DNA from: Bdellovibrionota bacterium
Lineage (GTDB): Bacteria; Bdellovibrionota_C; UBA2361; JAAYZI01
Length of the DNA: 64,000 nt
Assembly (NCBI GenBank): GCA_050950765.1
Contig: JBMNIF010000001.1
Location: forward strand, 179,619 to 243,618
Reading direction: 5' to 3'
Shown: positions 1 to 49,141 of the stretch, one piece after another
Layout of the letters: the number at the start of each line of letters is the position of its first letter
Numbering within the stretch: the stretch's first letter is position 1
Notes under the pieces: generated by a model
The model's database searches: none
Told to the model about the DNA's origin: nothing
The model's input: only the letters and a program-made list of their open reading frames with translations
Position numbers and translations under genes: made by a program

Positions 1-203
1 AATTCAACTTCAAATTTAGGCTTTTCTATTGGAATATATTTACCATCAATTATTTTTCCTATTATCCCTAACTCTACGGGGTAAGGCTTGCCGTTTTTTC
101 TGACGCTAGTTCTTTTGATAACATTGTATTCGTTTGGTGTTCTAGTTGCCTTTATTCTAGTATTTTTTGGTTTTAATTTTAATATTTCCTCTGGTATTGG
201 CAT
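1..203 (-). CDS. N-terminal part of a probable DDE transposase (IS1634/IS4-like), runs off the left edge; not in ORF track
   Basis: Manual translation from ATG at 203: MPIPEEILKLKPKNTRIKATRTPNEYNVIKRTSVRKNGKPYPVELGIIGKIIDGKYIPIEKPKFEVE, open to base 1, AAGGGG RBS upstream. Resembles from memory the basic N-termini of IS1634/IS4-like transposases; catalytic domain not in window. Confidence 0.55.
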   Translation of the reverse strand, partial: MPIPEEILKLKPKNTRIKATRTPNEYNVIKRTSVRKNGKPYPVELGIIGKIIDGKYIPIEKPKFEVE

Positions 204-225
204 TTCAAATCCCCTTAAAAAACGA

Positions 226-720
226 ATAATGGCAGATCTGGCTGCAGGGTTTAGTCGGCTTTGTAGCTGGATAATGGCAGATCTGGTGCCACCCTTCAAC
301 TTTGCTGCTTTAAGCTGCGATCTGGTCGCTAGTATCTGGTGCCACCCATTAATTTGGCTGGATCTGATAGGTTTCGGCTAGCTTTAGTTTTGGTGCCACC
401 CTCTAGGGATGGCGGACGGTGGGCTAGCGTCTGGTGCCACCCTCTAGGGACGACGGATCAGCTACGGGGGTTAAAAAACTGGTGCCACCCTTCCAGTTGG
501 CTGGATTTGCAGATTTTGTGGCTTTGGCTTTGGTGCCACCCTTCAGCGTTGCCGCTTTAAGCTGAATATCTGGTGCCACCCTTCAACTTTGCCGCTTTAA
601 GCTGCGACTGGCTTTGGTGCCACCCTCTAGGGATGGCGGACGGTGGGCTAGCGTCTGGTGCCACCCTCTAGGGACGGCGGATCAGCTACGGGGGTTAAAA
701 AACTGGTGCCACCCTTCCAG
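226..720 (+). repeat. Tandem array 1 of core GGTGCCACCC (reverse orientation relative to most other arrays), 10 cores
   Basis: Cores at 285, 338, 392, 433, 481, 532, 572, 616, 657, 705; spacings 53,54,41,48,51,40,44,41,48; 392-496 is nearly identical to 616-720. Confidence 0.95.
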
Positions 721-742: not shown

Positions 743-3025
743 TTACCTCTTTAATAAATCGCTTAGTCCAGCTAATGGGGTATTTTTAAAGGTTCCCTGT
801 GGGGGAGTGCGCTTTTTTGGTTTTTGCAACTGTTTTGTTAGTGTGTAGTTACTACCGTCATTGCTTTCTTTCTTCATGCTTAAGGCGATTTGTCGTTTAT
901 CCGTATCTACGTTAACTACTCTAACTGTTACACGGTCTCCTGGATTAACTACGGTACGCGGATCTTTTACAAAGTTGTCACTTAATTGAGAGACGTGCAC
1001 TAAACCGTCCTGATGTACGCCAATATCAACAAAAGCTCCAAAATTCGCAACATTAGTCACAATACCAGGGCAACTCATGCCGATTTTAAGGTCAGATAGT
1101 TCGTGGATATCTTCCCTGAAAGAAAATGCTACAAAGGTTTCTCGTGGATCCCTTCCTGGTTTTTCAAGCTCTTTAATAATATCAGCACTCGTAAACTCAC
1201 CGAGATCATTTTTAAAGATGCTATCTTTTTTTAGTAGGGCAGCACCAACGCCGATTAAATCACTTACTGTCTTGTTTAAACGTTCTGCCGTGATTCTTAA
1301 CGCTTCATACCTTTCTGGGTGTACACCAGTATTATCTAAGGGATTTTCAGATTCCGGAATCCTTAAAAATCCGGCAGCTTGCTCGAAAGCTTTTCCGCTA
1401 AAACGTGGGACCGATAGTAAGTCTTGCCTAGATTTAAAAAGCCCTACATTTGTACGATACTCTACTATTGATTTTGCTAAGCTCGGTCCAATGCCCGAAA
1501 CGTAAGTTAAAAGATGTTCCGATGCTGTGTTTAAATTAACTCCGACGGAGTTTACCGCAGATTCAACGACACGGGTTAATCCTTGCTTAAGAGCGGATTG
1601 TGATACGTCGTGTTGATATTGACCAACGCCGATACTTTTTGGATCCACCTTTACCAATTCTGCCAGTGGGTCTTGTAAACGACGAGCGATGGAGATGGCG
1701 CCGCGTACTGTCAGATCTAAGTCAGGGAATTCTTGTCTTGCAACTTCACTAGCGCTGTAAATACTAGCCCCTGCTTCACTAATAACTACAACTGGAATGT
1801 TTTGTTTTAACTCCGTAAGTACTTTACGAATAAAAGTTTCGGCTTCTCTGGATCCTGTGCCGTTCCCTATGGCAATGGCACGCAGAGCTGATTTTTCAAT
1901 TAAATTTTTTATTAGCCCCTTTGCTTGTGTCTGCATGCCGTCATTTTCGATATGTATTACTCCGCTAGCAATATATTTACCTGTTTGATCTACCAAAGCT
2001 AATTTACAGCCAGTTCTTATGCCGGGATCTACACCTAAAACTGTTTTTGATCCAAACGGCGCTGCTAACAAAACCTTTCTGACGTTTTCTGCAAAAACGG
2101 CAATAGCAGCTTCATCTGCTACCTGTTTAAGTTTGGTATGAATCTCTGCTGAAATTGTAGATAAAACATAATATTTAAAAGAGAGACGCGCTGCATTAAG
2201 CAAAATTTTTGCAGCTGTAGAATCCCTAGCAGTACAAGCTTCCGATTCATAACGTGCTTGGAGTCTATCCATTAAGTCTGGTGTAGAACCTGTAATGGTT
2301 AAAGTAAGTTCGCCCTCTTCTTCGCCGCGGCGTAATGCTAAATAACGGTGAGAGTTTTCCGGTTTTAAAAGTGATGAAATATTTTCTGTGAATTCAAAAT
2401 AATTTTCGAATTTGCTGTTTGGTTTCGGGTTCTTTCCTTTTTCGGAGGTAATGGCACCTTCTTTTAATAAAGATTCTCTCACTAATTGACGTAATTCCAT
2501 CAATTCAGTTAGTCGTTCTACAATAATGGCTTGTGCACCATCAAGGGCACCTTTGGTGTCATTGATATTCATCTCAGTGTTGATAAAATCTGAAGCTTTT
2601 GTCTCTGCTGTAATATCAGTCGTTAAACCGTGCCCAACCTGCCAAAGCCAATCTGCCAAAGGCTCTAATCCAGCATCTCGTGCTACGGCGGCTTTTGTTT
2701 TGCGTTTTCGTTTATAAGGAAGGTAGATATCCTCAAGGGTGTTTAGTTCAAAACACTTCTCGATACTGTGTCGCAATTCCGGAGTTAATTTATTTTGTGC
2801 TTCGATCTCTCCGATAATAAATGCCTTACGTTTTTCTATTTCGTCCCATAGATTTTTTGCTTTGATGATAGTTTCAATTTCGACCTCATCCAAACCTCCT
2901 GTCTGTTCTTTTCTATAACGAGCAATAAAGGGAATCGTACAGCCTTCTGCTGTTAATCGTAAAACAGCGTCGGCTCCTGCTAGGGGAATATTACTAAAGT
3001 TAGATCTAAACCAATCAACAAACAT
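743..3025 (-). CDS. tex: Tex/YhgF RNA-binding transcription accessory protein
   Basis: TIPFIARYRKEQTGGLDE N-terminus, YqgF-like LGVDPGIRTGCK, IGVGQYQHDV, HhH repeats, C-terminal S1 (NFGAFVDIGVHQDGLVHVSQL). Confidence 0.95.
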   Translation of the reverse strand: MFVDWFRSNFSNIPLAGADAVLRLTAEGCTIPFIARYRKEQTGGLDEVEIETIIKAKNLWDEIEKRKAFIIGEIEAQNKLTPELRHSIEKCFELNTLEDIYLPYKRKRKTKAAVARDAGLEPLADWLWQVGHGLTTDITAETKASDFINTEMNINDTKGALDGAQAIIVERLTELMELRQLVRESLLKEGAITSEKGKNPKPNSKFENYFEFTENISSLLKPENSHRYLALRRGEEEGELTLTITGSTPDLMDRLQARYESEACTARDSTAAKILLNAARLSFKYYVLSTISAEIHTKLKQVADEAAIAVFAENVRKVLLAAPFGSKTVLGVDPGIRTGCKLALVDQTGKYIASGVIHIENDGMQTQAKGLIKNLIEKSALRAIAIGNGTGSREAETFIRKVLTELKQNIPVVVISEAGASIYSASEVARQEFPDLDLTVRGAISIARRLQDPLAELVKVDPKSIGVGQYQHDVSQSALKQGLTRVVESAVNSVGVNLNTASEHLLTYVSGIGPSLAKSIVEYRTNVGLFKSRQDLLSVPRFSGKAFEQAAGFLRIPESENPLDNTGVHPERYEALRITAERLNKTVSDLIGVGAALLKKDSIFKNDLGEFTSADIIKELEKPGRDPRETFVAFSFREDIHELSDLKIGMSCPGIVTNVANFGAFVDIGVHQDGLVHVSQLSDNFVKDPRTVVNPGDRVTVRVVNVDTDKRQIALSMKKESNDGSNYTLTKQLQKPKKRTPPQGTFKNTPLAGLSDLLKR

Positions 3026-4349: not shown

Positions 4350-4391
4350 AGCATGGGATGATAAAACAAAAATTGTAAAAAGGACACCCGA

Positions 4392-4448
4392 CTTGTCCCT
4401 GGTGCCACCCACCAGCGCTAAGCCCTTGTCACTGGTGCCACCCACCAG
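4392..4448 (+). repeat. Two GGTGCCACCC cores downstream of the RAYT-like gene
   Basis: CTTGTCcCTGGTGCCACCCACCAG twice (cores at 4401 and 4434, 33 bp apart). Confidence 0.9.
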
Positions 4449-4660: not shown

Positions 4661-5629
4661 TCAGGTCGCCACCCCGCAAAGCCTACCTACAATAGGCATA
4701 CTCGGACGAAATGCCCCATAAACAAACTTGGCTGAAATATCACCTTGCTTCCACTTCTTCCAAGCCTTTCTACACTCTTCACAAAAAGCCTTATATTCTG
4801 CTATCGCCTTTATCCGTAACTCCTTAATCCAACAAATTAAATACGGCGTACGTGTCTTCTTCTTAGGTACATACGCAATATTTATCGATTGCTGCTGCAC
4901 TTTACGCATCCCCATAAAATGCCCCTTCCTTTCAAGTGCAATCTCTTCTTCCCTTTTTGAAATCTCTGTCATTATTGTTTTAAAGATCTCTTCAGACGTA
5001 AGGTTTTTTGATTCTTCAAAACAATTCTTCCAAGCATCAGGGGTAATCTTAAGCTCATGACAAGTGTGCGGAAACATATTAAGCATTTTTAATAAAATAG
5101 CATCGCTTATTTTATGAAGTCTCTGCGGTAACTTACGTAAATTAGTAGAAGAGGTATACTTACCCTGCACTGTTAAAGAACCTGATTTATACATTCTAAA
5201 ACTACTACACCCTTCCCAATCAGCAGCGTGTGCAACGAGTCCTGCTTTTACAGGATTTATATAAATATAGACTATCTTATCGATAACATCATTATGAGTT
5301 ACCAAACGTTGCTCCTTAAAACGTCCATCCCAAACGTTTCTCCTATATTGCGGTGTTAGTTTCTTAATAGCACGTGCAACTGCACTTTCCATCTCTCCCA
5401 TAAATGCAGAGATGTGCTTTCCTTCACCAACTAATATCATGTGAAAGTGGTTACTCATCCAATTAAAATGAGCAATTCTAACACGATGGTGCTCTTGGCA
5501 ACGTGCCATAATCCCTAACAGGATCCATTTCATAAAAAGGCGTGCTAGAAATGGCAAGCCAGATAATGTTCTATTGGTGACATGTACCACCATTTTATTA
5601 GGATTTCTCCTATCTCTACGATTTCTCAT
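4661..5629 (-). CDS. REP-associated tyrosine transposase-like HUH (Y1) endonuclease with long C-terminal extension
   Basis: VHVTNRT, HUH motif MSNHFHMIL, VWDGRFK, catalytic-Tyr motif YIYINPVKAGLV and DWEGCSSF match the RAYT/TnpA(REP) Y1 pattern; flanked by repeat arrays. Confidence 0.85.
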   Translation of the reverse strand: MRNRRDRRNPNKMVVHVTNRTLSGLPFLARLFMKWILLGIMARCQEHHRVRIAHFNWMSNHFHMILVGEGKHISAFMGEMESAVARAIKKLTPQYRRNVWDGRFKEQRLVTHNDVIDKIVYIYINPVKAGLVAHAADWEGCSSFRMYKSGSLTVQGKYTSSTNLRKLPQRLHKISDAILLKMLNMFPHTCHELKITPDAWKNCFEESKNLTSEEIFKTIMTEISKREEEIALERKGHFMGMRKVQQQSINIAYVPKKKTRTPYLICWIKELRIKAIAEYKAFCEECRKAWKKWKQGDISAKFVYGAFRPSMPIVGRLCGVAT

Positions 5630-5779
5630 AAGACAACTCCAGAAAAAAAATAAAAATAATTAATAAATTGGCAGAATTGCCGGTTAGCTTGGCAGGATTG
5701 CCAAATTCTAACGCCTAATTGTCGCTAGAGTTGGGATTTTATTGTGGGTAAAAATGAAAAAAGTTTGGAGATTGGGATT

Positions 5780-6252
5780 GGTGCCACCCTTTAGTGCGAG
5801 GATGGTGTTAGAAAAAGAAAAGAAGGGTGGCACCAGTTTTACCCCCGTGAAGACCTAGCTGATCCGTTTTACAGTTCCAGCCCGTCCGATTGTCCCTGAA
5901 GGGTGGCACCAGTGACAAGCCTGCAACAATTGCTGATTTAAGGGCAAAAAGAAGGGTGGCACCAGTTTTTTAACCCCCGTGAAGACCTAGCTGATCCGTT
6001 TTGCAGTCCCAGCCCGTTCAGTTGTCCCTGAAGGGTGGCACCAGTGACAAGCCTGCAATAATTGCTGATTTAAGGGCAAAAAGAAGGGTGGCACCAGTTT
6101 TTTAACCCCCGTGAAGACCTAGCTGACTCTGTTTTCAGTTACAGCCCGTTCGGTTGTCCCTGAAGGGTGGCACCAGTTTTTACCCCCGTGAAGAGCTAGC
6201 TGATCCGTTTTGCAGTCCCAGCCCGTCCGGTCGTCCCTGAAGGGTGGCACCA
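5780..6252 (+). repeat. Array 3 upstream of the RAYT-like gene: one inverted core plus 7 tandem GAAGGGTGGCACCA cores
   Basis: Inverted core at 5780; forward cores at 5825, 5901, 5954, 6033, 6086, 6165, 6242 (modules 76,53,79,53,79,77 bp). Confidence 0.95.
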
Positions 6253-6265
6253 GTGCTAACCTCGT

Positions 6266-7342: not shown

Positions 7343-7554
7343 TCTTTCCTTATCTCCTTAATCGAGATGATAGATATTTTTACAAAGAATAACCACTCCT
7401 TTCATCTCCTGACTTCTGAGTTTTTTGTCTAAAATTATTTTTTTAAGGAGTTAACTTATTAAAAAATAATGAGAAGTTTTGAAAAACATTAAAAATGCCT
7501 AAAATATTTTCATATAATGCTATCCACCAGTAGGCTAAAAGCAGGTGCCACCCA

Positions 7555-8953: not shown

Positions 8954-9681
8954 CTACACCTTAGTATTTAATATTTTATCGACAAAAATCTTCTGGTCAA
9001 TTTCTAATGCTTCTAAAATATCTTTTTGTTTTTTTGTTAATGGCTGTAGTAGCATGCTCAGATTTTCATTATCTATGCGTCTTATCATTTTAAGCGTTTC
9101 TAAAACTCTCTGAATGGTTTTTTCTACTTTTTTGTTATTATTATTTATAGTTCTTTGTAGGTCTGACCACATAATTAAGCTAAGAAAGGAAACGAAGCTT
9201 TTGCCGTCAGTAGTTTTTTCATTATGTGTTAGCATACGGTCATTATCCAATTCATTTTTTAAATTATCGAAAGCTTTCTCAATAAAGTCTCGTCGTGAAT
9301 AGATATGAAGTGCTTCTTGTGGTGTCATTGTTGAGTGGTTACTCAAAAAAGCAAAAACTCCTAGCATAGATAAGATATCGGTAATTTTTTCATGATCTCT
9401 TTCAAAACTTTCTAACTGCACTTCTTTCTTAGTTTTTATTTTGTAGTATTTAGAGTAGCGACTCATACTCATAGGCTTTTTCATTTCTTTTAGTTCATCT
9501 TCTAATCTGTCAATATGAGAGTAAAGAGTGCTCTCTTCCTCAGATGCACTTTTTGTATTTAAGTAAACGTAGAGAGAAAATTTTTCTCCATTTATCACAA
9601 TATCTTTTCTTACCCCATAACAATTTGTCCCAGATATGTGATTCCTAGAAGAGCGAAGAGTAACAGATACTTCCCTCATAG
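8954..9681 (-). pseudogene. C-terminal half of IS1634 transposase (split by IS3)
   Basis: YSRRDFIEKAFDNLKNEL (IS4-superfamily Y-R-E-K-like signature), GKSFVSFLSL, LTKKQKDIL as in the copy at 47.5 kb. Confidence 0.85.
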
Positions 9682-9730
9682 TGTTCTGCCTCTGATGGAA
9701 ATGGACTTTTGTCATGCCACAAAACCCTAG

Positions 9731-10693
9731 TTAACACACCTGAGCTTGTTGTTCAATGTTGTAGTTAGTAAGAGAGGGGTACCCCTCTCTTACTAACTTG
9801 CGATGTGCTCTAGCAGCTTCCAATTTGCTGTCTCGAGCTCTAAATATCTCCTCTTGCTTGTTATTCAATCTATCATTTGGTGTTATATAACCTAGCGCAC
9901 AATGTAACCGCTGATTGTTATATTCTTCGACAAACTTACTCACTATAGTTTTCGCATCATCAAGTGATACTGGAGTGTTAGGTCGTATCGCTTCTACTTT
10001 TAATGTCCCATTAAATCTCTCCATCTTACCGTTCGATTGTGGATAGAACGGTGATGTCTTGACGTGAGTCATACCAGATATCTTTATAAAATTCTTAAAC
10101 TCTTTTGAAATATAGGCTGAACCGTTATCTGAAATAATTCGCGGTCTTGCGTCTGGAAAACTTTCTCTAGCCTTTTGTAATACTACTTCAATATCTATTT
10201 CTTTCATCGATTCTCTAATGTCCCATGCAACTAAATACCGACTACATCCATCCAAAACTCCAATAAAATAGTAAAATGTGCCACAAATATTGATATATGA
10301 AACATCCGTATGCCAATGTTCATGCGGGTTAAGTGGTTGTTCAAATCCTGTCCCTTTCTTGCTTTTTAAACCATTCCAGCAACGCATTAAGCCAGCACTT
10401 TTCAATACTCTATAGGTCGTCGCAGGGGATACTGCCACAACATCTGCGTCAAGCATCATGTATGTTAATGCTCGATAACCTACTCTTGAGTGCTCTAAAT
10501 AATACTTAATAATAGCCTCCCTTTCACTGGGTAATAGCCAGTAATCTCTCGGAATTAGCCCGTTATGAAAGTTCTCTTTACCGTAATGTTTTTCCCAAGC
10601 ATAGTACTTGCTCCGTGTTATCCCTAACCTCTTTATAAACATCTCCCGCTTCATTTCTGATTTCTCTTGCCATTCATGTACAAAATCTATCAC
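9731..10693 (-). CDS. IS3-family OrfB, rve integrase-core DDE transposase (expressed as OrfAB fusion)
   Basis: WHTDVSYI, IISDNGSAY, PQSNGKMERFNGTLK, YNNQRLHCALGYITP. Confidence 0.92.
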   Translation of the reverse strand: MIDFVHEWQEKSEMKREMFIKRLGITRSKYYAWEKHYGKENFHNGLIPRDYWLLPSEREAIIKYYLEHSRVGYRALTYMMLDADVVAVSPATTYRVLKSAGLMRCWNGLKSKKGTGFEQPLNPHEHWHTDVSYINICGTFYYFIGVLDGCSRYLVAWDIRESMKEIDIEVVLQKARESFPDARPRIISDNGSAYISKEFKNFIKISGMTHVKTSPFYPQSNGKMERFNGTLKVEAIRPNTPVSLDDAKTIVSKFVEEYNNQRLHCALGYITPNDRLNNKQEEIFRARDSKLEAARAHRKLVREGYPSLTNYNIEQQAQVC

Positions 10694-10728
10694 CTCATCT
10701 CGTATTTGTGGCTCAACCCAACGCTTCG

Positions 10729-11034
10729 TTAAAGCTCCCCAAGCTTTTTTTTTAAATCTATATGAAGCCCCAAAAGCTCCGCTAGCGCAGAATCCTTCTT
10801 CGTTAGCTTCTTCTCCAAAATATCTATCCGTTCAGCTTGCTTCTTTTCTTCTTTCCTACCATTTTTATTCCGCTCAAAAATTTGGATAGCTCCCTCAAAT
10901 AATAGCTTCTGCCATTCATAAAATGTACTAATGTGTACGCCGTATTTATCGCATAAACTCGATAACGGCTTATTTCCTAATAAATGCTCCTTCAGTATCT
11001 TAACCTTATCTTCTGCACTAAAATGTTTTCCCAT
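10729..11034 (-). CDS. IS3-family OrfA (HTH)
   Basis: FSAEDKVKILKEHL...SSLCDKYGVHISTFYEWQK HTH followed by coiled coil. Confidence 0.9.
   Translation of the reverse strand: MGKHFSAEDKVKILKEHLLGNKPLSSLCDKYGVHISTFYEWQKLLFEGAIQIFERNKNGRKEEKKQAERIDILEKKLTKKDSALAELLGLHIDLKKKLGEL
10744..10753 (-). other. Programmed -1 frameshift slippery site (A9G, contains A-AAA-AAG)
   Basis: Minus strand TTA AAA AAA AAG CTT at the end of orfA; the -1 frame continues KAWGALTKRWVEPQIRDEVIDF into orfB. Confidence 0.8.
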
Positions 11035-11121
11035 TATTCACCCCATTAGTTAATATCACTCAGGCTATTATAGTAGCTTTTTTCAGCACCTCAAATGTCC
11101 ATTTCACGCTGAACCAGCACA

Positions 11122-12014
11122 ATAGTATCGTTGTAATTTTTCTGAGATTTAGGAACAGCTACGAGAAATTCTATTTGCTCTTTTTTTATATATTCTAAAT
11201 TTTCTTTTGTAATAAAACCTCTATCCAGAACATAAAATATATCATCAATACCTAAGTTTTTAGAGTATTCCATCATTGTTGTAAGAAAAACTTTATCAAC
11301 AACACTTCCACTGTAAAGAAAAAAACTTATTGGTAAATTGCTATCGGTAGCGTATAAAAGCCCGACATTTAGTTGTGGTAAATATTCTTTGTCTCTATTG
11401 TATCCATTCTCGGCAAGTGGCAAGTCTGCATAAGTAGAAAGGCTCGTAACATCATAAGCTACAGTCTCATTGTTTTTCATAGCATGGTTTTTCCACACAG
11501 AAAAAAACTTCATTTGATCTTGTTTGGTAATCGATGAAAAAAGCTCACTTGTCTTTTGCGAGGATAGAGATATGTTTTTAGGGGTAAGAGTATTTTGCAA
11601 AAAATTATCTATATTCATCATTACATTGCCTTCGCAAGCCATGTATAACGCAGTATAAAAGATATCTTCGTATTTATCGGGAAAGATTGTTTTTAAGCAT
11701 TTTAATAACCCTATAGCCTTAGCTCTCATTTTTAATGCGACTACGTGACCTGCGTCCCAAACAAAGCGAGAAGAAGCTAGATCAATAACGTCAGATGGCA
11801 TTGGATAATATTTTTTAAAGTTCTCATTAGGAATCATTCTTCCTTGTCTATCAGGGTCTATCTTTCCCACAATCACTTCATCACAAGTAGGTGTGCCGTT
11901 CTTATTACGACGATGACCAAGTACGTGATACACATACTTTACGTTTCCTTTGCTATCTTTTTTATACGAAATCTTTTTTTCTGGAATTGGAATTGAAATA
12001 TTTATTAAAGCCAT
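11122..12014 (-). pseudogene. N-terminal half of IS1634 transposase
   Basis: VAYDVTSLSTY (D1), NGYNRDKEYLPQLNVG, YVLDRGFIT (D2); joins in frame to 8954-9677 once IS3 and one TSD are removed. Confidence 0.88.
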
Positions 12015-12399
12015 TTTGTCTCCTATTTTTTACTGTCCCGTAGACTACGGAAACATGTCTACAGAACAAAAAATGTCAATGGTTTTTTAAAACTTTCATA
12101 AAAACTTAATTAAATAAATATGTTGGAGGAAATATAATATTAGAAAATCTAAATATGAAATTAAATTATTGATATGGACTACATAAAAAACGGGAATTTA
12201 GGTCGTTATTGTGGACGAAAAATTTTTTAGGTGCTTCAAGTGCGAAGTCGGGAAAAGTAGGTGCCACCCATCACCTAGAAGCAAGGTTAAAAATATAAAA
12301 AAAGGGCAGCACGTATTTTTTGTTTACGTACCGCCCTCTACATTCTATCACATAATTATATCTGCAAAGGTAATAAAAGCTCAATAAAACAGGGGTGTT

Positions 12400-15456: not shown

Positions 15457-15617
15457 TGAAGGGCGGCACTTTTTACCTTCGTAAAAATCTAGCTAATTCG
15501 CTTTGCAGTTGCACCCCTTTTAACTGTTCTTAGAGGGTGGTGTTTCTACCTCCGTTAAAATCTAACCAATTCGTTTTTTAGTTGTAGCCCCTCAATCGTC
15601 ATTGGTGGGTGGCACCA
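15457..15617 (+). repeat. Degenerate core/module-A repeat cluster between methyltransferase and GT4
   Basis: GAAGGGCGGCAC, GAGGGTGGTG and TGGTGGGTGGCACCA (core 15607) separated by module-A-like spacers. Confidence 0.85.
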
Positions 15618-16943: not shown

Positions 16944-17102
16944 TGAAGGGTGGCACTTTTTACCTTCGTAAAAATCTAGCTAATTCGCTTTGCAGTTGCA
17001 CCCCTTTTAACTGTTCTTAGAGGGTGGTGTTTCTACCTTCGTTAAAATCTAGCTAATTCGCTTTGCAGTTGCAGCCCGCTCAATTGTCACTGAAGGGTGG
17101 CG
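16944..17102 (+). repeat. Degenerate core/module-A repeat cluster; first 108 bp is a direct repeat of 15457-15564
   Basis: 16944-17051 vs 15457-15564: 2 mismatches by manual alignment. Confidence 0.9.
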
Positions 17103-17107
17103 TTAAG

Positions 17108-17787: not shown

Positions 17788-18270
17788 GAGGGTGGCATTT
17801 TTAACCCCCGTCAAAATCTAGCTGATTCGTTTTGCAGTCGCAGCCTGTTCAATCGTCCCTGAAGGGTGGCACCAGTGACAGCCAGCTACAAAGAAGGGTG
17901 GCACCAGATCTGCCGAATTTTGGATTTTTGCTAATGTCTTGATATTATTAGATGTTATGATTTTGAAGTTTGGATGTCCTATTTACGAAGCGTCTGCAAC
18001 GCTGAAGGGTGGCACCAAATTTTATCCCGTCTTAGTGAAGGGTGGCACCAGTGACAGCCAGCTACAAAGAAGGGTGGCACCAGATCTGTCGAATTTTGGA
18101 TTTTTGCTAATGTCTTGATATTATTAGATGTTATGATTTTGAAGTTTGGATGTCCTATTTGCAAAGCGTCTGCAACGCTGAAGGGTGGCACCAAATTTTT
18201 GACCTTCGTGAAAACTTAACCAATTCGCTTTTCAATATCAGCCCGCTCTGTTGTCCTTAGAAGGTGGCAA
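17788..18270 (+). repeat. Tandem core array (6 perfect plus 2 degenerate cores)
   Basis: Cores at 17864, 17896, 18007, 18040, 18072, 18183; spacings 32,111,33,32,111. Confidence 0.95.
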
Positions 18271-18283
18271 ATTTCTCAAAAAA

Positions 18284-22533: not shown

Positions 22534-22669
22534 GGTGTAAATATTTCGCGTTCTTTTTAAATGTATAAAAGAGGATGATAAACATAAATAGGCGTCATTA
22601 AAAAGAGTTTCTAAGTTTCGAGTGTAGGCAATTTTAAATTTAGGATACCCACTTTTTACTGGGTTTTTA

Positions 22670-23391
22670 AGCTTTTGCTAATGTCTTAATATTATTAACT
22701 ATTGCAATTTTAGAGTTTGGATGTCCTATTTACAAAGCGTCTGCAACGCTGAAGGGTGGCACCAGATTTTTAACCCCCGTGAAGATCTAGCTGATTCGTT
22801 TTGCAGTTGCAGCCCGTTCAATCGTCACTGAAGGGTGGCACCAGAACTGCAGCCGCCAAGATCTGACAAATCTGCTTATACTGAAGGGTGGCACCAGTTT
22901 TTTAACCCCCGTGAAGATCTAGCTAATCTGTTATGCAGTTGCAGCCCGCCCGATCGTCCCAGAAGGGTGGCACCAAAACTGCCGAATTCTAACTTCTGCT
23001 AACATCTTGATATTATTAGCAGCGCTGGTGGGTGGCACCAGTGATAGCTAGCCATAAAGAAGGGTGGCACCAAAACTGCCCGATTTTGGATTTTTGTTAA
23101 CGTCTTGATATTATTAGCAGCGCTGGTGGGTGGCACCAACGACAGGCAGCTACAAAGAAGGGTGGCACCAGATCTGCCGAATTTTAAGGTTTTGTTAATG
23201 TCTTGATATTATTAGATGTTGTAATTTTGAAGTTCGGGTGTCCTATTTGCAGCGCTGAAGGGTGGCACCAGTGATAGCTAGCTACAAAGAAGGGTGGCAC
23301 CAGTTTTTTGACCTCCGTAAAGATCTAGCCGATCCGGTTTTGTAGTTGCAGCCCGTTCGGTCGTCCCCCAGATTTCTGAAGGGTGGCACCA
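22670..23391 (+). repeat. Tandem core array (11 cores) between tolC and rpsB
   Basis: Cores at 22754, 22833, 22886, 22965, 23030, 23062, 23128, 23160, 23260, 23292, 23381. Confidence 0.95.
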
Positions 23392-23439
23392 GATCTCCGC
23401 TTTTTAGTCGCAGCCTGCGCAACTTTAGAAAAAGGTTTT

Positions 23440-23468
23440 TTGCTTTCTTGATTTAAGTGTGGTATATC
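23440..23468 (+). promoter_or_regulatory. Putative sigma70 promoter of rpsB-tsf
   Basis: TTGCTT-17 bp-TATATC with TGn extended -10, just upstream of the leader. Confidence 0.55.
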
Positions 23469-23582: not shown

Positions 23583-24584
23583 ATGACTGAAAATATAGCA
23601 GAAAATACAGTAGAAGAGACCGCAGCGGCGGTGACTGAAGTGGTAGAAACAGTCAAGGAACCTTACGTTCCTGTGGCGGTAACGATTAAAACCATGTTGG
23701 AGGCAGGTGCTCATTTTGGACATAAGGCAGAGCGTTGGCATCCTAAAATGTTACCATTTATCTTCGGTGTTCGTAATAAAGTTCATATTATTAACCTTGA
23801 TACCACCCTTGAGTATTGGGAAAAGGCTCGTAAATTCGTAGTCGATGTGACATCTCGTGGTGGACGCATTCTGTTTGTTGGTACTAAGCCGCAAGCTCGC
23901 GAAGCTATTAAAGAGGCAGCTGAAAGGTGCGGTGCTTATTACGTTAATAACAGATGGTTGGGTGGAACCCTTAGTAATCTTGCTACGATTAGAAATTCAA
24001 TCTCTCGCATGAACAAGTTGCAGGATCTGTTACGTCAAGCAGAAAACAAGGAGGGCGGTGTACGTATCGCTAAAAAAGAGCGTTTAGCTATCGCCAAGCA
24101 AGTTGAAAAACTCATCACAAACCTTGGCGGTATTAAAGATATGGTGAAACCGCCGGAAGTAGTTTTTATCGTTGATATCTGCAAAGAGACGATCGCTGTC
24201 GCTGAGTCCCTTAAATTGCATATCCCAGTTATTGCTTTGGTTGATACTAATGTAGATCCTTCAAAGATTAAGTTTCCGATCCCGAGTAATGATGATGCTA
24301 CAGGTGCCATACAGCTGTTTGCAAATGCCATTGCAGATGCCGCCATCGAAGGTCATAAAGTTTATGAAGCAAGGATGACGGAAAATAATTTAACCAAACG
24401 TGAGGAACGTGCTGCGTCAGATGACAAAGGTGGCGAGCCTGTGGTTGAGAGGCGTGGTCGTTCTGATAACAATAGAAAAAATCGTGGCGGTAGGTTTACG
24501 AAAGCAACAAATCGCTCTGAGTCTAAAGAGGATGAAGAGGTTAAAACAGAAAGTGCTGATGAAGCTACCGAAGTTAAAGAATAA
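23583..24584 (+). CDS. rpsB: 30S ribosomal protein S2 (acidic N- and C-terminal extensions)
   Basis: MLEAGAHFGH, RWLGGTLSN, DTNVDP, IPSNDDA. Confidence 0.97.
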   Translation: MTENIAENTVEETAAAVTEVVETVKEPYVPVAVTIKTMLEAGAHFGHKAERWHPKMLPFIFGVRNKVHIINLDTTLEYWEKARKFVVDVTSRGGRILFVGTKPQAREAIKEAAERCGAYYVNNRWLGGTLSNLATIRNSISRMNKLQDLLRQAENKEGGVRIAKKERLAIAKQVEKLITNLGGIKDMVKPPEVVFIVDICKETIAVAESLKLHIPVIALVDTNVDPSKIKFPIPSNDDATGAIQLFANAIADAAIEGHKVYEARMTENNLTKREERAASDDKGGEPVVERRGRSDNNRKNRGGRFTKATNRSESKEDEEVKTESADEATEVKE

Positions 24585-36744: not shown

Positions 36745-37505
36745 CTAACTTTTTACCTCCGTAGAGATCTAGCCGAACCGTTCTGCAAGTTGTAGCCCGT
36801 TCGGTCGTTACTGGTGGGTGGCACCAGATCCACTAAGCTATCGCTGCCAATTAGGACACCCGCTTTTAGCTAAAGGGTGGCACCAACGACAGCAGCTACA
36901 AAGAAGGGTGGCACCAAAACTGCCAGATTCTAGGCTTTTGTTAACGTCTTGATATTATTAGATGTTGTGATTTTGAAGTTTGGGTGTCCTATTTGCAAAG
37001 CGTCTGCGTCCCTGAAGGGTGGCACCAGATCCAAGCCAAACCAAAGCCCCATTAGCCAGCTACAAAGAAGGGTGGCACCAAATTTTTAAACAGCCCGTCC
37101 GGTCGTTATGGTGGGTGGTACCAGTGACAGCCAGCTACAAAGAAGGGTGGCACCAAATTTTTAACCTCCAGTTTTTTGACCCCCGTTCTATCGTCCCTCA
37201 AGGGTGGCAACCAGTGACAGCCCCGATAAAGAAGGGTGGCACCAAAACTCTGAAGGGTGGCACCAAAACTACCTGATTTTGGGTTTTTGTTAACGTCTTG
37301 ATATTATTAGATGTTGTGATTCTGAAGTTTGGGAGAAAACTCTAGTGGGTGGCACCAAATTTTTGACCTCCGTGAAGATCTAGCCGATCCCGTCTTGCAG
37401 TTACAGCCCGTCCGGTCGTTACTGGTGGGTGGCACCAGATCCTCCGTCAACATCTAGCCGATTCGGTTTTTAGTTGTAGCCCGTCTGATTGTTCTTAGAG
37501 GGTGG
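36745..37505 (+). repeat. Tandem core array (about 10 perfect plus 3 degenerate cores) between convergent proA and lptB
   Basis: Cores at 36816, 36875, 36906, 37017, 37070, 37145, 37234, 37255, 37347, 37427; degenerate at 37113, 37202, about 37500. Confidence 0.93.
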
Positions 37506-37566
37506 AGGGGTCGTTACTGAAGGGGTAGGGAGATCATCACCTGAAGGGGGCGGGGAAGTAGAAACT

Positions 37567-45319: not shown

Positions 45320-45360
45320 GAAAAAGCGTCCTTAAAAACTTCTTCTTATATTTCAATAGG

Positions 45361-46411
45361 TCAGTTTTTTAACCCCCGTGGAAATCTAGCCGATTCATTT
45401 TTTAGTTGCAGCCCGTCCTGCCGTCCTTGAAGGGTGGCACCAGTTTTTTAACCCCCGTGGAAATCTAGCCGATTCATTTTTTAGTTACAGCCTGTTCTAT
45501 CATCCTTGAAGGGTGGCAGCAGATTTTTGACCTCCGTAGAGACCTAACCGATTCGGTTTTTAGTTGCAGCCCGTTCAACCGTCCTTGAAGGGTGCCGTTC
45601 TTGGTGGGTGGCACCAGTGACAGCCAGCTAAAAAGAAGGGTGGCACCAAAACTGCCGAATTTGAAACTTTTGTTAACATCTTGATATTATTAGAAGTTGT
45701 GATTTTGAAGTTTGGGTGTCCTATTTGCAAAGCGTCTGCGACGCTGAAGGGTGGCACCAGTGACAGCCAGCTAAAAAGAAGGGTGGCACCAAAACTGCCG
45801 CATCCTTGAAGGGTGGCACCAGATTTTTGACCTCCGTAGAGACCTAACTGATCCCGTTTTTTAGTTGCAGCCCGTCCCGTTACTGGTGGGTAGTACCAAA
45901 ACTGCCGAACCGATAAAGAAGGGTGGCACCAAAACTGCCGAATTTGAAACTTTTGTTAACATCTTGATATTATTAGAAATTGTGATTTTGAAGTTTGGGT
46001 GTCCTATTTGCAAAGCGTCTGCGACGCTGAAGGGTGGCACCAAATTTTTAACCTCCGTAGAGACCTAACCAATTTGTTTTTTAGTTGCAGCCCGTCCCGT
46101 TACTGGTGGGTGGCACCAAAACTGCCGAACCGATAAAGAAGGGTGGCACCAAAACTGCCGAATTTTGGGTTTCTACTAACGTCTTAATATTATTAGAAGT
46201 TGTGATTTTGAAGTTTGAGTGTCCTATTTGCAAAGCGTCTGCGACGCTGAAGGGTGGCACCAGTGACAGCCAGCTAAAAAGAAGGGTGGCACCAAAACTG
46301 CCGAATTTGAAACTTTTGTTAACATCTTGATATTATTAGATGTTGTGATTTTAGAGTCTTTTAGCTCTAATGGGTGGCACCAAATTTTTCAGTTCCTAAT
46401 GGGTGGCACCA
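45361..46411 (+). repeat. Largest tandem core array (14 perfect plus 3 degenerate cores) between convergent hisS and nth
   Basis: Cores at 45432, 45606, 45638, 45749, 45781, 45811, 45921, 46032, 46108, 46141, 46252, 46284, 46372, 46401; degenerate at 45511, about 45590, 45888. Confidence 0.95.
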
Positions 46412-46417
46412 AATTTT

Positions 46418-47050
46418 TTAGTTGTTAATGTTGCAAGAGGGGCAGATCTTACATAGCTTACACTCATCACAGAGCGGATTTCTTGCTTTGCAGACACGAC
46501 GACCGTGATAGATCAGTTGATGATGAAGATCGCGCCAACTGTCAGCAGGAAATTGTTTTGTTAAATCACCCTCAACCCCCTCTGGCGTTTTGGCGGAAGA
46601 TAACCCTAAACGGTTTGAAACTCTAAGTACGTGCGTATCAACCGGCATTGCTGGTCTAATCCCTTTTTCACACTGTATAACATTAGCAGTTTTTCTCCCT
46701 ACCCCGTGAAGACTTATCAGATCGTCATGCTCCGTAGGTAAAGTGCCATTAAAATTTTCCATAATGCGTTTGGCAAGTTGTACAATATTTTTTGACTTCG
46801 TCTTGTAGTAATTAACTTCACGGATTATCTCCTCAACATCTTTCTCTTTAGCAAGACTGAGCTCTTTAAAGTTACGATACCTCTTAAATAAAGAGGGTGT
46901 AACTTGATTAACTTTTTTGTCCGTACATTGAGCAGATAAGACTACTGCGATAATTAATTGATAATCGTTTTTAAAGTGTAGCTCCGAAGAAGGGTTCGGA
47001 TAAAGTTCTGATAAAAGAGTTAATAACCGTTTTCGCTTTTGAGGTGTCAT
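46418..47050 (-). CDS. nth: Endonuclease III
   Basis: AVVLSAQCTDKKVN, HhH LHGVGRKTANV, VDTHVLRV, C-x6-C-x2-C-x5-C 4Fe-4S motif. Confidence 0.96.
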   Translation of the reverse strand: MTPQKRKRLLTLLSELYPNPSSELHFKNDYQLIIAVVLSAQCTDKKVNQVTPSLFKRYRNFKELSLAKEKDVEEIIREVNYYKTKSKNIVQLAKRIMENFNGTLPTEHDDLISLHGVGRKTANVIQCEKGIRPAMPVDTHVLRVSNRLGLSSAKTPEGVEGDLTKQFPADSWRDLHHQLIYHGRRVCKARNPLCDECKLCKICPSCNINN

Positions 47051-47471: not shown

Positions 47472-47499
47472 TTGACATTTCCTGTTTGTATGGTATGAT
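47472..47499 (+). promoter_or_regulatory. Putative transposase promoter
   Basis: TTGACA-16 bp-TATGAT with TGn extended -10. Confidence 0.6.
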
Positions 47500-47527
47500 T
47501 GCCCTATACATATTAGGGAGGTTTTTT

Positions 47528-49141
47528 ATGAAAAAAATAACTAAAAAAGTTGACTTACCAGATAGGCAAATTGCTCGTAAGAAAAACAAAAATGGGACTA
47601 CTTATATCTATTACAGGATGAACTTTCGTCGTGAAAATGGAGAGCCTACGTTTGATGAAATAGGTATAGGGAAGCTAGATGAAAGCGGTAAGAAATTAAT
47701 TCCTAATAGAAATTACTATGATTTGTTTCCAGATGATTCTAATAGATATGTTATTAGCAATAAATCTTTTGGTCTTACTTATGTTTTAAATAAGATTGTA
47801 AAAGATTTAAGGTTAGACAAGACATTGCTTTCAATTTTTGGAAATGACACATACGAGATTTTAACTTTAGCGTTTTATATTCTAGCAAATGGAAATGTAG
47901 TATCACATGCTTCAAGTTGGATAGATGATAGTGTCTTACCATATGAAATTTCTGAATTAACAAGTCAAAAAATAAGTCGTCTTTTTGAACGTATTGACTA
48001 CGAGAAAAGACTTAATTTTTTTAAGAAATGGACGAAGCGATATTTAGCTCAAGAATGTTGGTATTATGACGTAACTTCCATATCTTCTTATAGTAAAAAA
48101 ATAAGCATATTGGAGTTTGGCTATAATAGGGATATGGATAAATTGCCGCAAATAAATATAGGTATGTGCTACGGCTCTACAACGAAGCTTCCTTTATTCT
48201 ATCAAGTTTATAATGGCAGCATTACAGATAAGACATATTTTAGTTTTCTTTTAAGAGACTTTCCATTTATTAGTCTTAATAATCGTATTAACCTTGTTAC
48301 GGATCAAGGTTTTGTGACGCAAGATAATTTAGCGGAAGTAGCAAATGAAGAAGGGCAAAAGTTTGGACTACTTTGTCCTTTGCCACTATATTGGAATGAC
48401 GCTAAAAGAATATTAGAAAATCACACTGCACTTATTAAGCAAGATGCTAATTATATAAAAGGAACCTCTACTTTTGGTTGTTCTGTAATAGATACTGTTA
48501 TGGGACAACCTGTAAAGATTTATGTTTATTACAATATGGGAAAGGCGCCATATGAGATAGTTCAATTTTACGAGAAAATTTCTAGAATGGAAGAAGAGTT
48601 AGAAGAACTGAAAAAATTAAAATACTCTTTGCTGGATCGTAAAAAATATAGGAAATATTTTGATATTAAAATAAATGAAGATGGTTTCACTTATGAAAAA
48701 AAATCAGAAGCTATAGATGAATACTTGAGAAATTGTGGCTTCTTAATTTTGATTGGTATTGGTTGTGATTCAAATCCGAGTGAAGCACTTTTTCGTTATC
48801 GTCAAAAAGATGTAATTGAAAAACAATTTTTCCAGCTAAAAAATGAAATTGATTTTAGAAGACTTAAAACACATAATCTTCAAACCACAGAAGGAAAACT
48901 TTTTGTTGGATTTTTAGCTCTTATACTTAGAAGTTATATTCTTAATTTACTTAAAAATGATACAAGGCAAAAAAAGTTTAATATACCTGATGTCATTAAA
49001 GAGCTTCAAAAAATTAAAGTTATAGAAACTAAAAATGGCAGTAAATTAATGGTTCCGTTAACAAAAAAACAAAAGGATATTTTGAAAATTTTCAATATTG
49101 AAGAAGATGACTTTCTAAAAAGTATTTTTAAGAAAAAGTAA
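47528..49141 (+). CDS. IS1634-family DDE transposase
   Basis: YYDVTSISSY, GYNRDMDKLPQINIG, VTDQGF, YRQKDVIEKQFFQLKNE; ATG 47528 after AGGGAGG RBS. Confidence 0.9.
   Translation: MKKITKKVDLPDRQIARKKNKNGTTYIYYRMNFRRENGEPTFDEIGIGKLDESGKKLIPNRNYYDLFPDDSNRYVISNKSFGLTYVLNKIVKDLRLDKTLLSIFGNDTYEILTLAFYILANGNVVSHASSWIDDSVLPYEISELTSQKISRLFERIDYEKRLNFFKKWTKRYLAQECWYYDVTSISSYSKKISILEFGYNRDMDKLPQINIGMCYGSTTKLPLFYQVYNGSITDKTYFSFLLRDFPFISLNNRINLVTDQGFVTQDNLAEVANEEGQKFGLLCPLPLYWNDAKRILENHTALIKQDANYIKGTSTFGCSVIDTVMGQPVKIYVYYNMGKAPYEIVQFYEKISRMEEELEELKKLKYSLLDRKKYRKYFDIKINEDGFTYEKKSEAIDEYLRNCGFLILIGIGCDSNPSEALFRYRQKDVIEKQFFQLKNEIDFRRLKTHNLQTTEGKLFVGFLALILRSYILNLLKNDTRQKKFNIPDVIKELQKIKVIETKNGSKLMVPLTKKQKDILKIFNIEEDDFLKSIFKKK

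Follow-up and report, generated by a model that had tools for sequence, protein, structure and literature searches.

The largest group of REP-associated tyrosine transposases (RAYTs; REP, repetitive extragenic palindrome) is Group 1 of Bertels et al. 2017 (PMC5581495), or TnpA-Y1 subclass 2.1, and it has been described without associated abundant repeats (PMC6006769, PMC5581495). Quentin et al. 2018 found no REP-like sequences for subclass 2.1 (PMC6006769), and the 16-mers that flank Group 1 genes average about 12 copies per replicon (PMC5581495). To this group correspond the TIRtrons with their TIR-associated tyrosine transposases (TIRYTs; TIR, terminal inverted repeat) of Di Nocera et al. 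2013 (PMC3733652), which Quentin et al. equated with subclass 2.1 (PMC6006769). The published TIRs share the motif GGGGWSAS; their families, described as 'moderately abundant', can form dimers or clusters (PMC3733652). Arrays of another kind, called neisserial intergenic mosaic elements (NIMEs), consist of the dRS3 core ATTCCCN8GGGAAT separated by segments of RS families, 19-214 bp long; they were reported as restricted to Neisseria, and a site-specific recombinase acting on the core was proposed (PMC1797815). Here we describe intergenic arrays of a short core repeat and of reused modules, together with a RAYT-like transposase gene bracketed by the same core, in a stretch of 64,000 nucleotides from a Bdellovibrionota bacterium (assembly GCA_050950765.1, contig JBMNIF010000001.1, positions 179,619 to 243,618; hereafter the window, with position 1 as its first base).

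The system is a RAYT/TIRYT-associated repeat family forming direct mosaic arrays, a 'TIRtron'-type relative of REP/RAYT. We give a probability of roughly 65% to the reading that the modules are genome-wide intergenic repeats whose core doubles as the terminal inverted repeat around a RAYT-like transposase gene, and that this transposase acts on the cores, with host recombination also reshaping the arrays. The closest described class is TIRtron/TIRYT. Here as there, a RAYT-like gene of about 320-335 codons is flanked by terminal inverted repeats that form no hairpin, copies of these repeats may be present at other genomic sites too, in dimers or clusters, and the protein carries NH[YF]H and Y..(x)NP motifs. 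The differences are threefold. The end is GGGTGGCACC (minimal form GTGGCACC) instead of GGGGWSAS, the best register matching six of the eight motif positions; the core occurs about once per kb, with junctions at 40-170 copies and long direct arrays built from a module library; and the window protein has a C-terminal domain other than the helix-turn-helix (HTH) or DnaA_C type (Bac_DnaA_C, HTH_23, HTH_28).

The core GGGTGGCACCA, searched as an 11-mer with at most one mismatch, was found 69 times in the 64 kb, for 0.37 expected from 100 dinucleotide-preserving shuffles, the largest shuffle count being 2. Every module begins with it. Counted position by position, the conserved unit is approximately TGAA-GGGTGGCACC-A-R; the invariant core, written (A)GGGTGGCACC(A), has an invariant part of 10 bases. 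Cores are grouped in eight intergenic clusters, which occupy about 7% of the window, with a few solitary copies besides, and the arrays prefer the 3' ends of genes and one divergent promoter region. Orientation is uniform inside every cluster. All six arrays with at least six cores are uniformly direct, and a single inverted pair of cores exists in the window (5780/5825).

The gene in question occupies 4661-5629 on the minus strand, and its product of 322 residues is a RAYT-like Y1 HUH transposase, for which an exact-sequence lookup returned no record. It has the HUH motif NHFHMIL and the catalytic tyrosine motif YIYINPVKAGLV, the two features that characterise the RAYT clade (HUH motif, Y..xNP tyrosine motif). 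Y1_Tnp is its only Pfam match (E = 1.2e-6), and NCBIfam REP_Tyr_transpos is matched with E = 1.2e-18 (67.4 bits). Residues N60, H61, H63, Y121, N125 and P126, which belong to the NHFH and YIYINP motifs, are invariant in 15 sequences. The best sequence match in the Protein Data Bank (PDB) is 4er8, E. coli TnpA_REP; the AlphaFold2 (AF2) model (pLDDT 86.8) also has 4er8 as its top Foldseek match (TM 0.71 on the target, E = 1.8e-6), followed by the ISDra2 and IS608 transposases (2xm3, 2a6m, 2vjv). The C-terminal 175 residues or so, a family-specific domain with four conserved cysteines, had no Foldseek match.

Read in the direction of this gene, a seven-core array (5825-6252) lies inverted upstream and two direct cores follow about 215 bp past the stop codon, with one further direct core (5789-5779) between the gene and the inverted upstream array. 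The transposase locus is the sole site of the window where cores of opposite orientation meet. A protein search gave 16 homologues (identity of 40-58% across the aligned region, and one variant at 99%), none of them on a contig longer than 4 kb. All three distinct homologues whose contigs could be read (P0008, P0013, P0003; 43-51% identical) had the same bracket, GGTGCCACCC upstream and GGGTGGCACC downstream, and so did contigs L097-L107. In every contig that reached far enough, GGTGCCACCC was 120-290 bp upstream and GGGTGGCACC 200-370 bp downstream. The core is thus tied to the transposase family with a fixed polarity, inverted upstream and direct downstream. The flank can also be followed in a related strain (L129, ERZ21942150 k141_236415), in which the transposase gene and the flank downstream of it show 98.3% identity. 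When positions 1-320 of this contig were compared with 5692-6260 of the window, an abrupt divergence set in roughly 60 bp upstream of the start codon, and the distal flanks were different; the upstream array of the strain consists of one 59-bp short A module between two inverted cores, where the window has seven cores. This indicates that arrays change on a short evolutionary timescale.

A second RAYT-like family shares the end. Its prototype (metagenome locus L084), a protein of 333 residues that is 20-25% identical to the window protein, is encoded by a gene flanked by perfect inverted copies of AGATTGTGATGATTGCGAA+GGGTGGCACC. The family comprises 914 proteins at E ≤ 1e-10, many of them named RayT by the source and mostly on short contigs; members on long contigs have the ends GCTAAGGGTGGCACCCATC (L125), CGAAGGGTGGCACC (L128) and a GTGTACGTGGCACC variant (L126, L128). 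The family fits subclass 2.1, because it gives weak matches to HTH_23 and HTH_38 and carries the motifs NHYH, WQ and YVHLNP. For a census we took 42 loci of full length in reference genomes, identity being measured to an L084-family probe. Inverted GGTGCCAC upstream and/or direct GTGGCACC downstream was present at 22 of the 42 loci, and the opposite orientation at none. The inverted motif stood at -77 to -382 (at -77 to -160 for 21 of the 22 loci) and the direct one at +9 to +136, in most cases between +19 and +33. All 22 belong to the 27 loci that are at least 40% identical to the probe; among census loci at 39% or less, none had the motif so arranged. Most hosts belong to the Acidobacteriota (Thermoanaerobaculia, Holophagae, Sulfomarinibacteraceae); there is also one metagenome-assembled genome (MAG) of Planctomycetaceae and one of Ilumatobacteraceae. 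When the two families were aligned with hhalign, similarity was confined to residues 44-142, the HUH core (probability 97.7%), and the C-terminal domains were unrelated; the shared end sequence would more likely be read by the catalytic core.

The arrays are not an assembly artefact, because contigs from two Joint Genome Institute (JGI) samples, 100% and 99.99% identical to the window, run across three of them. Repeat junctions were found at 40-170 times single-copy depth in four DNA runs, which corresponds to hundreds of copies per genome. Short-read Logan contigs of this organism (L041, L042) stop exactly at cores. Joints seen in Logan contigs were considered as evidence of excision and rejected: they mostly join different genomic copies, and the contigs fragment inside arrays. 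Nearly all homologues of both families (P0001-P0136) are on contigs of 1-5 kb, as expected if assembly-breaking repeats flank them.

The cores are separated by a small library of modules, A of about 79 bp, B of 32 bp, C of 111 bp and D of 53 bp, with deletion and fusion forms of these. The first-pass annotation had listed B at 17864, 18040, 23030, 23260, 45606, 45749 and 46252, C at 17896, 18072, 36906, 45638, 45921 and 46141, and A (76-79 bp) at 5825, 5954, 6086, 22754 and 22886. All these positions were correct, and extra copies were found: B copies or variants at 23128, 36875 (31 bp), 37113 and 37202, truncated C at 22965 (65 bp), 23062 (66 bp), 23160 (100 bp), 37255 (92 bp) and 46284 (88 bp), and A at 6165, 18183, 23292, 37347, 45432, 45511, 45811 and 46032. 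Among the fused forms, a 30-bp module at 45781 joins a C head to an A tail, a 43-bp module at 37070 joins an A head to an A tail, and a 57-bp module at 37145 contains two A heads and one A tail.

The annotation had also proposed that this library is shared by arrays up to 40 kb apart and that its modules follow one another in a non-random order, and both points held. Each module was classed by its tail and the next one by its head, and transitions were tested by permutation within the window. Of 16 transitions from a module ending in AAAGAA (tail B), 10 led to a C-type head (p = 0.00045), B-to-B and C-to-C transitions were never seen, and a B-type module precedes 9 of the 11 C copies of at least 60 bp. 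The order rule is statistically real. Part of this 'grammar' nevertheless stems from the local tandem duplication of units of several modules, and from B+C, which acts as one 143-bp composite with an internal core. Tandem Repeats Finder resolves the interval 17860-18199 into a 176-bp unit present in 1.9 copies at 98% identity, so that the interval on which the annotation was centred (17864-18192) is a recent local duplication of B, C and a 33-bp module. Tandem duplication and the B+C composite make an enzyme-imposed ordering rule unnecessary.

Module comparison by array, the check that the annotation had asked for, gave evidence of two processes. Pairwise identity was higher within arrays than between them, for A (0.874 versus 0.788, p < 0.0005) as for C (0.885 versus 0.834, p = 0.0035). 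For several modules, however, the most similar copy lies in a different array: C at 23160 pairs best with 17896 (93%), A at 22754 with 5954 (88%) and A at 23292 with 45511 (88%), and B at 37113 is identical to B at 17864. Module composition and order, moreover, differ from array to array. Local amplification and dispersal between loci have therefore both occurred, and the alternative that arrays were duplicated as wholes and then decayed was not seen. Cores inside arrays are almost all perfect, and modules diverge by 10-25%; mutated cores concentrate at array edges (17790, about 18262, 16948-17104 and 37500-37560).

How the arrays may have formed can be proposed by analogy with IS200/IS605 and TnpA_REP chemistry (PMC6006769). 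The transposase would cut and rejoin single-stranded DNA at cores, and a segment between two direct cores, consisting of one module or of several (hence B+C), would be excised and reinserted at another core. Such excision and reinsertion would account for the uniform orientation, the perfect cores at junctions, the identical lengths of modules, the multi-module units and the growth of arrays, and slippage and unequal exchange between cores or modules would add duplications and nested deletions. The order 'grammar' would then reflect multi-core units that were mobilised or duplicated together, and not a rule imposed by an enzyme. The template for this scheme is the 'peel and paste' cycle of IS200/IS605 elements (IS608, ISDra2), in which excision takes place between two sites on the same strand and insertion 3' of a short target, and the catalytic fold is shared, as the Foldseek matches indicate. 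These elements differ from the present system in having subterminal hairpins and tetra- or pentanucleotide targets, in carrying their own gene and in forming no arrays. The enzymatic process that the first-pass annotation had drawn from reuse and order is plausible, since a RAYT-like transposase gene, both in the window and among its homologues elsewhere, has this core as its terminal inverted repeat.

Several observations weigh against this reading. Movement of modules by the transposase is deduced by analogy, and local tandem duplication explains much of the order rule. The NCBIfam RAYT score of 67.4 bits is under the 80-bit equivalog cutoff, which leaves the protein in the RAYT clade without making it an equivalog. 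Distant homologues (27-35% identity, in Bdellovibrionota/Oligoflexia MAGs) have other inverted ends, some of them similar in form, such as AGGTTGGTACC and TTGGCACCT. Arrays at 22640-23450, 36745-37560 and 45353-46440 start or end with partial modules that have no core, contrary to what pure core-to-core insertion predicts. Finally, the core forms no stable hairpin and module folds look like those of shuffled sequence. Characterised Y1 transposases recognise hairpins. When A, B+C and A+53-bp units were folded as single strands together with the cores on either side, z values for both strands ranged from -1.4 to +0.6. The one pairing that recurred was between two cores, through GGTG.CACC, since GGTGGCACC almost equals its reverse complement.

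With the REP/RAYT systems of E. coli and Pseudomonas there are likenesses and differences. The likenesses are high-copy extragenic repeats, a preference for gene 3' ends, an inverted bracket around the transposase gene as in a REPtron, TnpA_REP (4er8) as nearest solved structure, and mosaic clusters with defined linkers and order rules, as in bacterial interspersed mosaic elements (BIMEs). REPs, however, are hairpins of 20-40 nt with a 5' GT[AG]G foot, and the core here is 10-12 bp long with no stable hairpin. The string GTGG, a putative guide, is embedded in it with no conserved stem adjacent. The inverted doublets known as REPINs are not the common unit, since the window arrays are direct, and REP orientation alternates in BIMEs, whereas the linkers and order rules found here go with a direct orientation. 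A doublet form does exist elsewhere: positions 13-600 of contig L076 (Ga0114918_10099308), from an organism of 49% GC, hold inverted REPIN-like doublets of the same core, GGGTGGCACCACTTTTGGTGCCACCC, in a tandem unit of about 186 bp, so that in another genome the core takes a hairpin-forming doublet form.

The most serious rival, which we nonetheless consider unlikely, is that host recombination alone (slippage, unequal crossing-over, gene conversion) built the arrays, the transposase merely sharing an end sequence with them and playing no part today. It would explain the recent tandem duplications, namely the 176-bp unit at 98% and a 220-bp unit at 91% (2.1 copies at 45807-46262, Tandem Repeats Finder), as well as the greater likeness of copies within an array, the nested deletion forms and the ragged array edges. 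It leaves unexplained how the same modules got to sites 40 kb apart, and in different orders, and why the 10-bp core is intact where modules diverge by 10-25%. Nor does it account for arrays in unrelated GC-rich genomes or for the fixed polarity of the bracket around the gene. A 10-bp core is, in addition, too short for efficient RecA-dependent exchange. It could also be that the core is a selected host binding site, serving nucleoid organisation, insulation or promoter delivery, and that arrays are kept for that function. This would agree with the strong conservation of the core relative to the modules, with the position of arrays at gene 3' ends and in one divergent promoter region, and with some promoter-like features. 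The core contains TGGCAC, a match to the -24 element of sigma-54 promoters, and core plus C head (for example 17899-17914 and 45641-45656) reads TGGCAC-N5-CTGC, the GG-N10-GC spacing of sigma-54 -24/-12 elements; but A and B heads have no -12 GC, which is restricted to C heads. C modules also hold the best sigma-70-like matches in the region 36-47.2 kb, TTGAAA-18 nt-TATTAT with an upstream TG (10 of 12 positions, in core direction), which lie at 45661-45690, 45944-45973 and 46307-46336, and in each copy of C conservation is highest in the TTGATATTATTAG segment. These matches, however, are to the consensus only and are restricted to C copies of the array at 45353-46440. Array orientation relative to neighbouring genes is inconsistent (C copies at 22640-23450 point toward rpsB, and the arrays at 17790-18275, 36745-37560 and 45353-46440 face convergent genes), and a binding site does not explain the polarity around the transposase gene. 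We consider this explanation improbable.

The remaining rivals start from known array architectures. If cores were attachment or target sites of another integrating element, as dRS3 is for filamentous phage in Neisseria, modules would be integration scars. The architecture of NIMEs is almost the same: a short dyad-symmetric core in direct arrays, families of segments between cores (here 20-110 bp), GC content that rises at cores and falls in the AT-rich segments, and arrays that vary between strains (PMC1797815). The core sequence is nonetheless a different one, and the candidate enzyme for NIMEs is a phage-borne IS110/Piv-type recombinase; the likeness implies no homology. In the window, no IS110/Piv-type recombinase and no phage gene adjoins an array, and the insertion sequence (IS) copies (IS3, IS1634, DDE) are not at cores; viral contig scans gave no array and no transposase homologue, only one isolated two-core match. 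An origin of this kind is, in our judgement, very improbable. Least credible of all is the reading of the arrays as CRISPR-like, or as coding for processed or structured RNAs. It has in its favour a superficial repeat-spacer look and the presence of modules in some metatranscriptome contigs, at a depth of, for example, 32 versus about 7 for rpsB. This RNA signal is weak evidence for transcription, explicable by copy number alone since the 40-170-fold DNA copy number far exceeds it, and no evidence for processing. CRISPR arrays have repeats of 24-48 bp, unique spacers of almost uniform length and cas genes close by. Here the repeat is of 10-16 bp, the spacers of 21-111 bp are reused, there are no cas genes among the annotated open reading frames of the window, Rfam at gathering thresholds had no match in the whole window, and no tRNA or tmRNA gene was found in it. 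With shuffle-like folds, the idea of structured RNAs or hairpins found no support, and neither did the structured transcripts that the first-pass annotation had offered as an alternative; its contrast with spacer acquisition is beside the point, nothing here being CRISPR-like.

Unrelated GC-rich DNA also holds arrays of this core, in which modules of varying length are reused. A contig of 63% GC (L053) has 14 cores and repeated 38+54-bp and 40+49-bp successions, and further arrays were found in L050/L063, L068, L074/L081, L094, L095/L090, a Planctomycetaceae MAG contig (L004), L002 and L016. In a Thermoanaerobaculales MAG (L133, JAZBOQ010000064.1), a RayT-type gene has five inverted cores upstream (1340-1420) and 11 direct cores downstream (2504-2845). 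Its spacers, of 17-63 nt, are nested deletion forms of one sequence, GTTTCAACAAAGCCATGAATGCTAA, and similar head-plus-tail remnants are present in the window. This locus resembles the repeated re-copying of one transposon end. The scans that returned such arrays used a two-core pattern on reference genome contigs and metagenome contigs, and most matches were discarded as chance or coding repeats (Gly-rich and pentapeptide-like proteins, simple tandem repeats); L048, L007, L009, L018, L003 and L011 were false arrays, and true ones are only a subset. The exact B module flanked by cores had no match in reference genome contigs, and a literature search for the core string gave primer coincidences only.

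With these data, one Group 1 clade and a second family with an unrelated C-terminal domain gain a precise shared end of fixed polarity and spacing, and there are genomes in which this end has spread to roughly one copy in every kb. As a defined substrate, the core could serve in first biochemical experiments on this major, uncharacterised RAYT group, and the arrays, as a second and independent example of the NIME type with a candidate enzyme next to them, make array formation testable. The GTGGCACC end was found in the uncultured digester bacterium of the window, in Acidobacteriota, in the Planctomycetaceae MAG and in the Ilumatobacteraceae (Actinomycetota) MAG. A bolder proposal, which we hold to be doubtful, is that this end defines a widespread, hitherto unrecognised RAYT-like class of single-strand, site-specific 'cassette shufflers' that build integron- or NIME-like arrays and rewire intergenic regions. 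If it were true, any DNA between direct cores could be excised and reinserted, some modules would carry promoters, and intergenic regions would be rewired genome-wide. Since short-read assemblies break at cores, transposase genes and nearby intergenic regions are probably lost systematically from MAGs.

We number the arrays a1 to a8 from left to right. Array a1 (200..714, cores 285-714, minus strand) has 10 cores downstream of a tex-like gene (743-3025); its modules are of 40-54 bp, include short deleted A forms, and contain a 48+41-bp pair twice. Array a2 (4380..4443, cluster 4401-4443, minus strand) has two cores, at 4443 and 4410, and the 33-bp module between them could form a CACCAG...CTGGTG stem; its arrangement is retained in strains L129 and L130. 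The solitary core at 5779..5789 (minus strand) is about 150 bp upstream of the transposase start codon and makes, with the core at 5825, the one inverted pair mentioned above. Array a3 (5825..6252, plus strand), with seven cores and, in order, two A-D pairs (D being 53 bp) and two further A modules, is the one inverted with respect to the transposase gene. A solitary A module with no 5' core, followed by one intact core, lies at 15540..15617 (plus strand). Array a4 (16944..17104, cluster 16948-17104, plus strand) is decayed, with two A-like modules that are 81% alike and the mutated cores GGGTGGCACT, GGGTGGTGTT and GGGTGGCGTT.

Array a5 (17790..18275, plus strand) has six intact cores (17864-18193), one between each module and the next. 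Its modules come in the order A, B, C, a 33-bp deleted A, B, C and A, and a degenerate core closes either end, GGGTGGCA-TTTTT at 17790 and GAAGGTGGCAAATTT at about 18262. Array a6 (22640..23450, cores 22754-23391, plus strand), between a divergent efflux-pump operon and rpsB, has 11 cores with A, B, C and truncated C modules, the leftmost C copy having no recognisable core. Array a7 (36745..37560, cores 36816-37437, plus strand) lies between convergent genes, has 12 cores and three decayed cores at its 3' edge, and is rich in fusion and deletion modules (21, 43 and 57 bp). Array a8 (45353..46440, cores 45432-46411, plus strand), with 15 cores, lies between convergent hisS and an HhH-GPD glycosylase gene and holds the 220-bp tandem unit. 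About 1 kb from it, a full-length IS1634-family transposase gene (47486-49141, plus strand, NCBIfam E = 5e-70) is inserted at a site that is not a core.

Two solitary cores of a sub-type, TGATGGGTGGCACCT.CTTTT, in which T replaces A after the core, are at 7543-7553 and 12259-12269, both on the minus strand. They bracket 4.7 kb in which an aminotransferase gene is accompanied by three IS remnants: a fragment of IS1634 (8954-9715), an IS3-type orfAB (9731-11034) and a DDE_Tnp_1 gene (11091-12014). Cumulative GC skew has its minimum at about 12 kb and rises steadily afterwards, a pattern confounded by gene orientation; the switch in core orientation is at about 5.8 kb, not at this minimum. The source organism, from anaerobic digesters, is a diderm, as judged from its LptA/LptC and OEP genes, and either stands apart phylogenetically or is missing from the reference genomes, to judge by its ribosomal protein S2. 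That protein, encoded next to a6 (23583-24584, plus strand), has 333 residues and is extended at both ends of the Pfam domain (residues 38-257), and its best matches in reference genomes are only about 52% identical and spread over several phyla.

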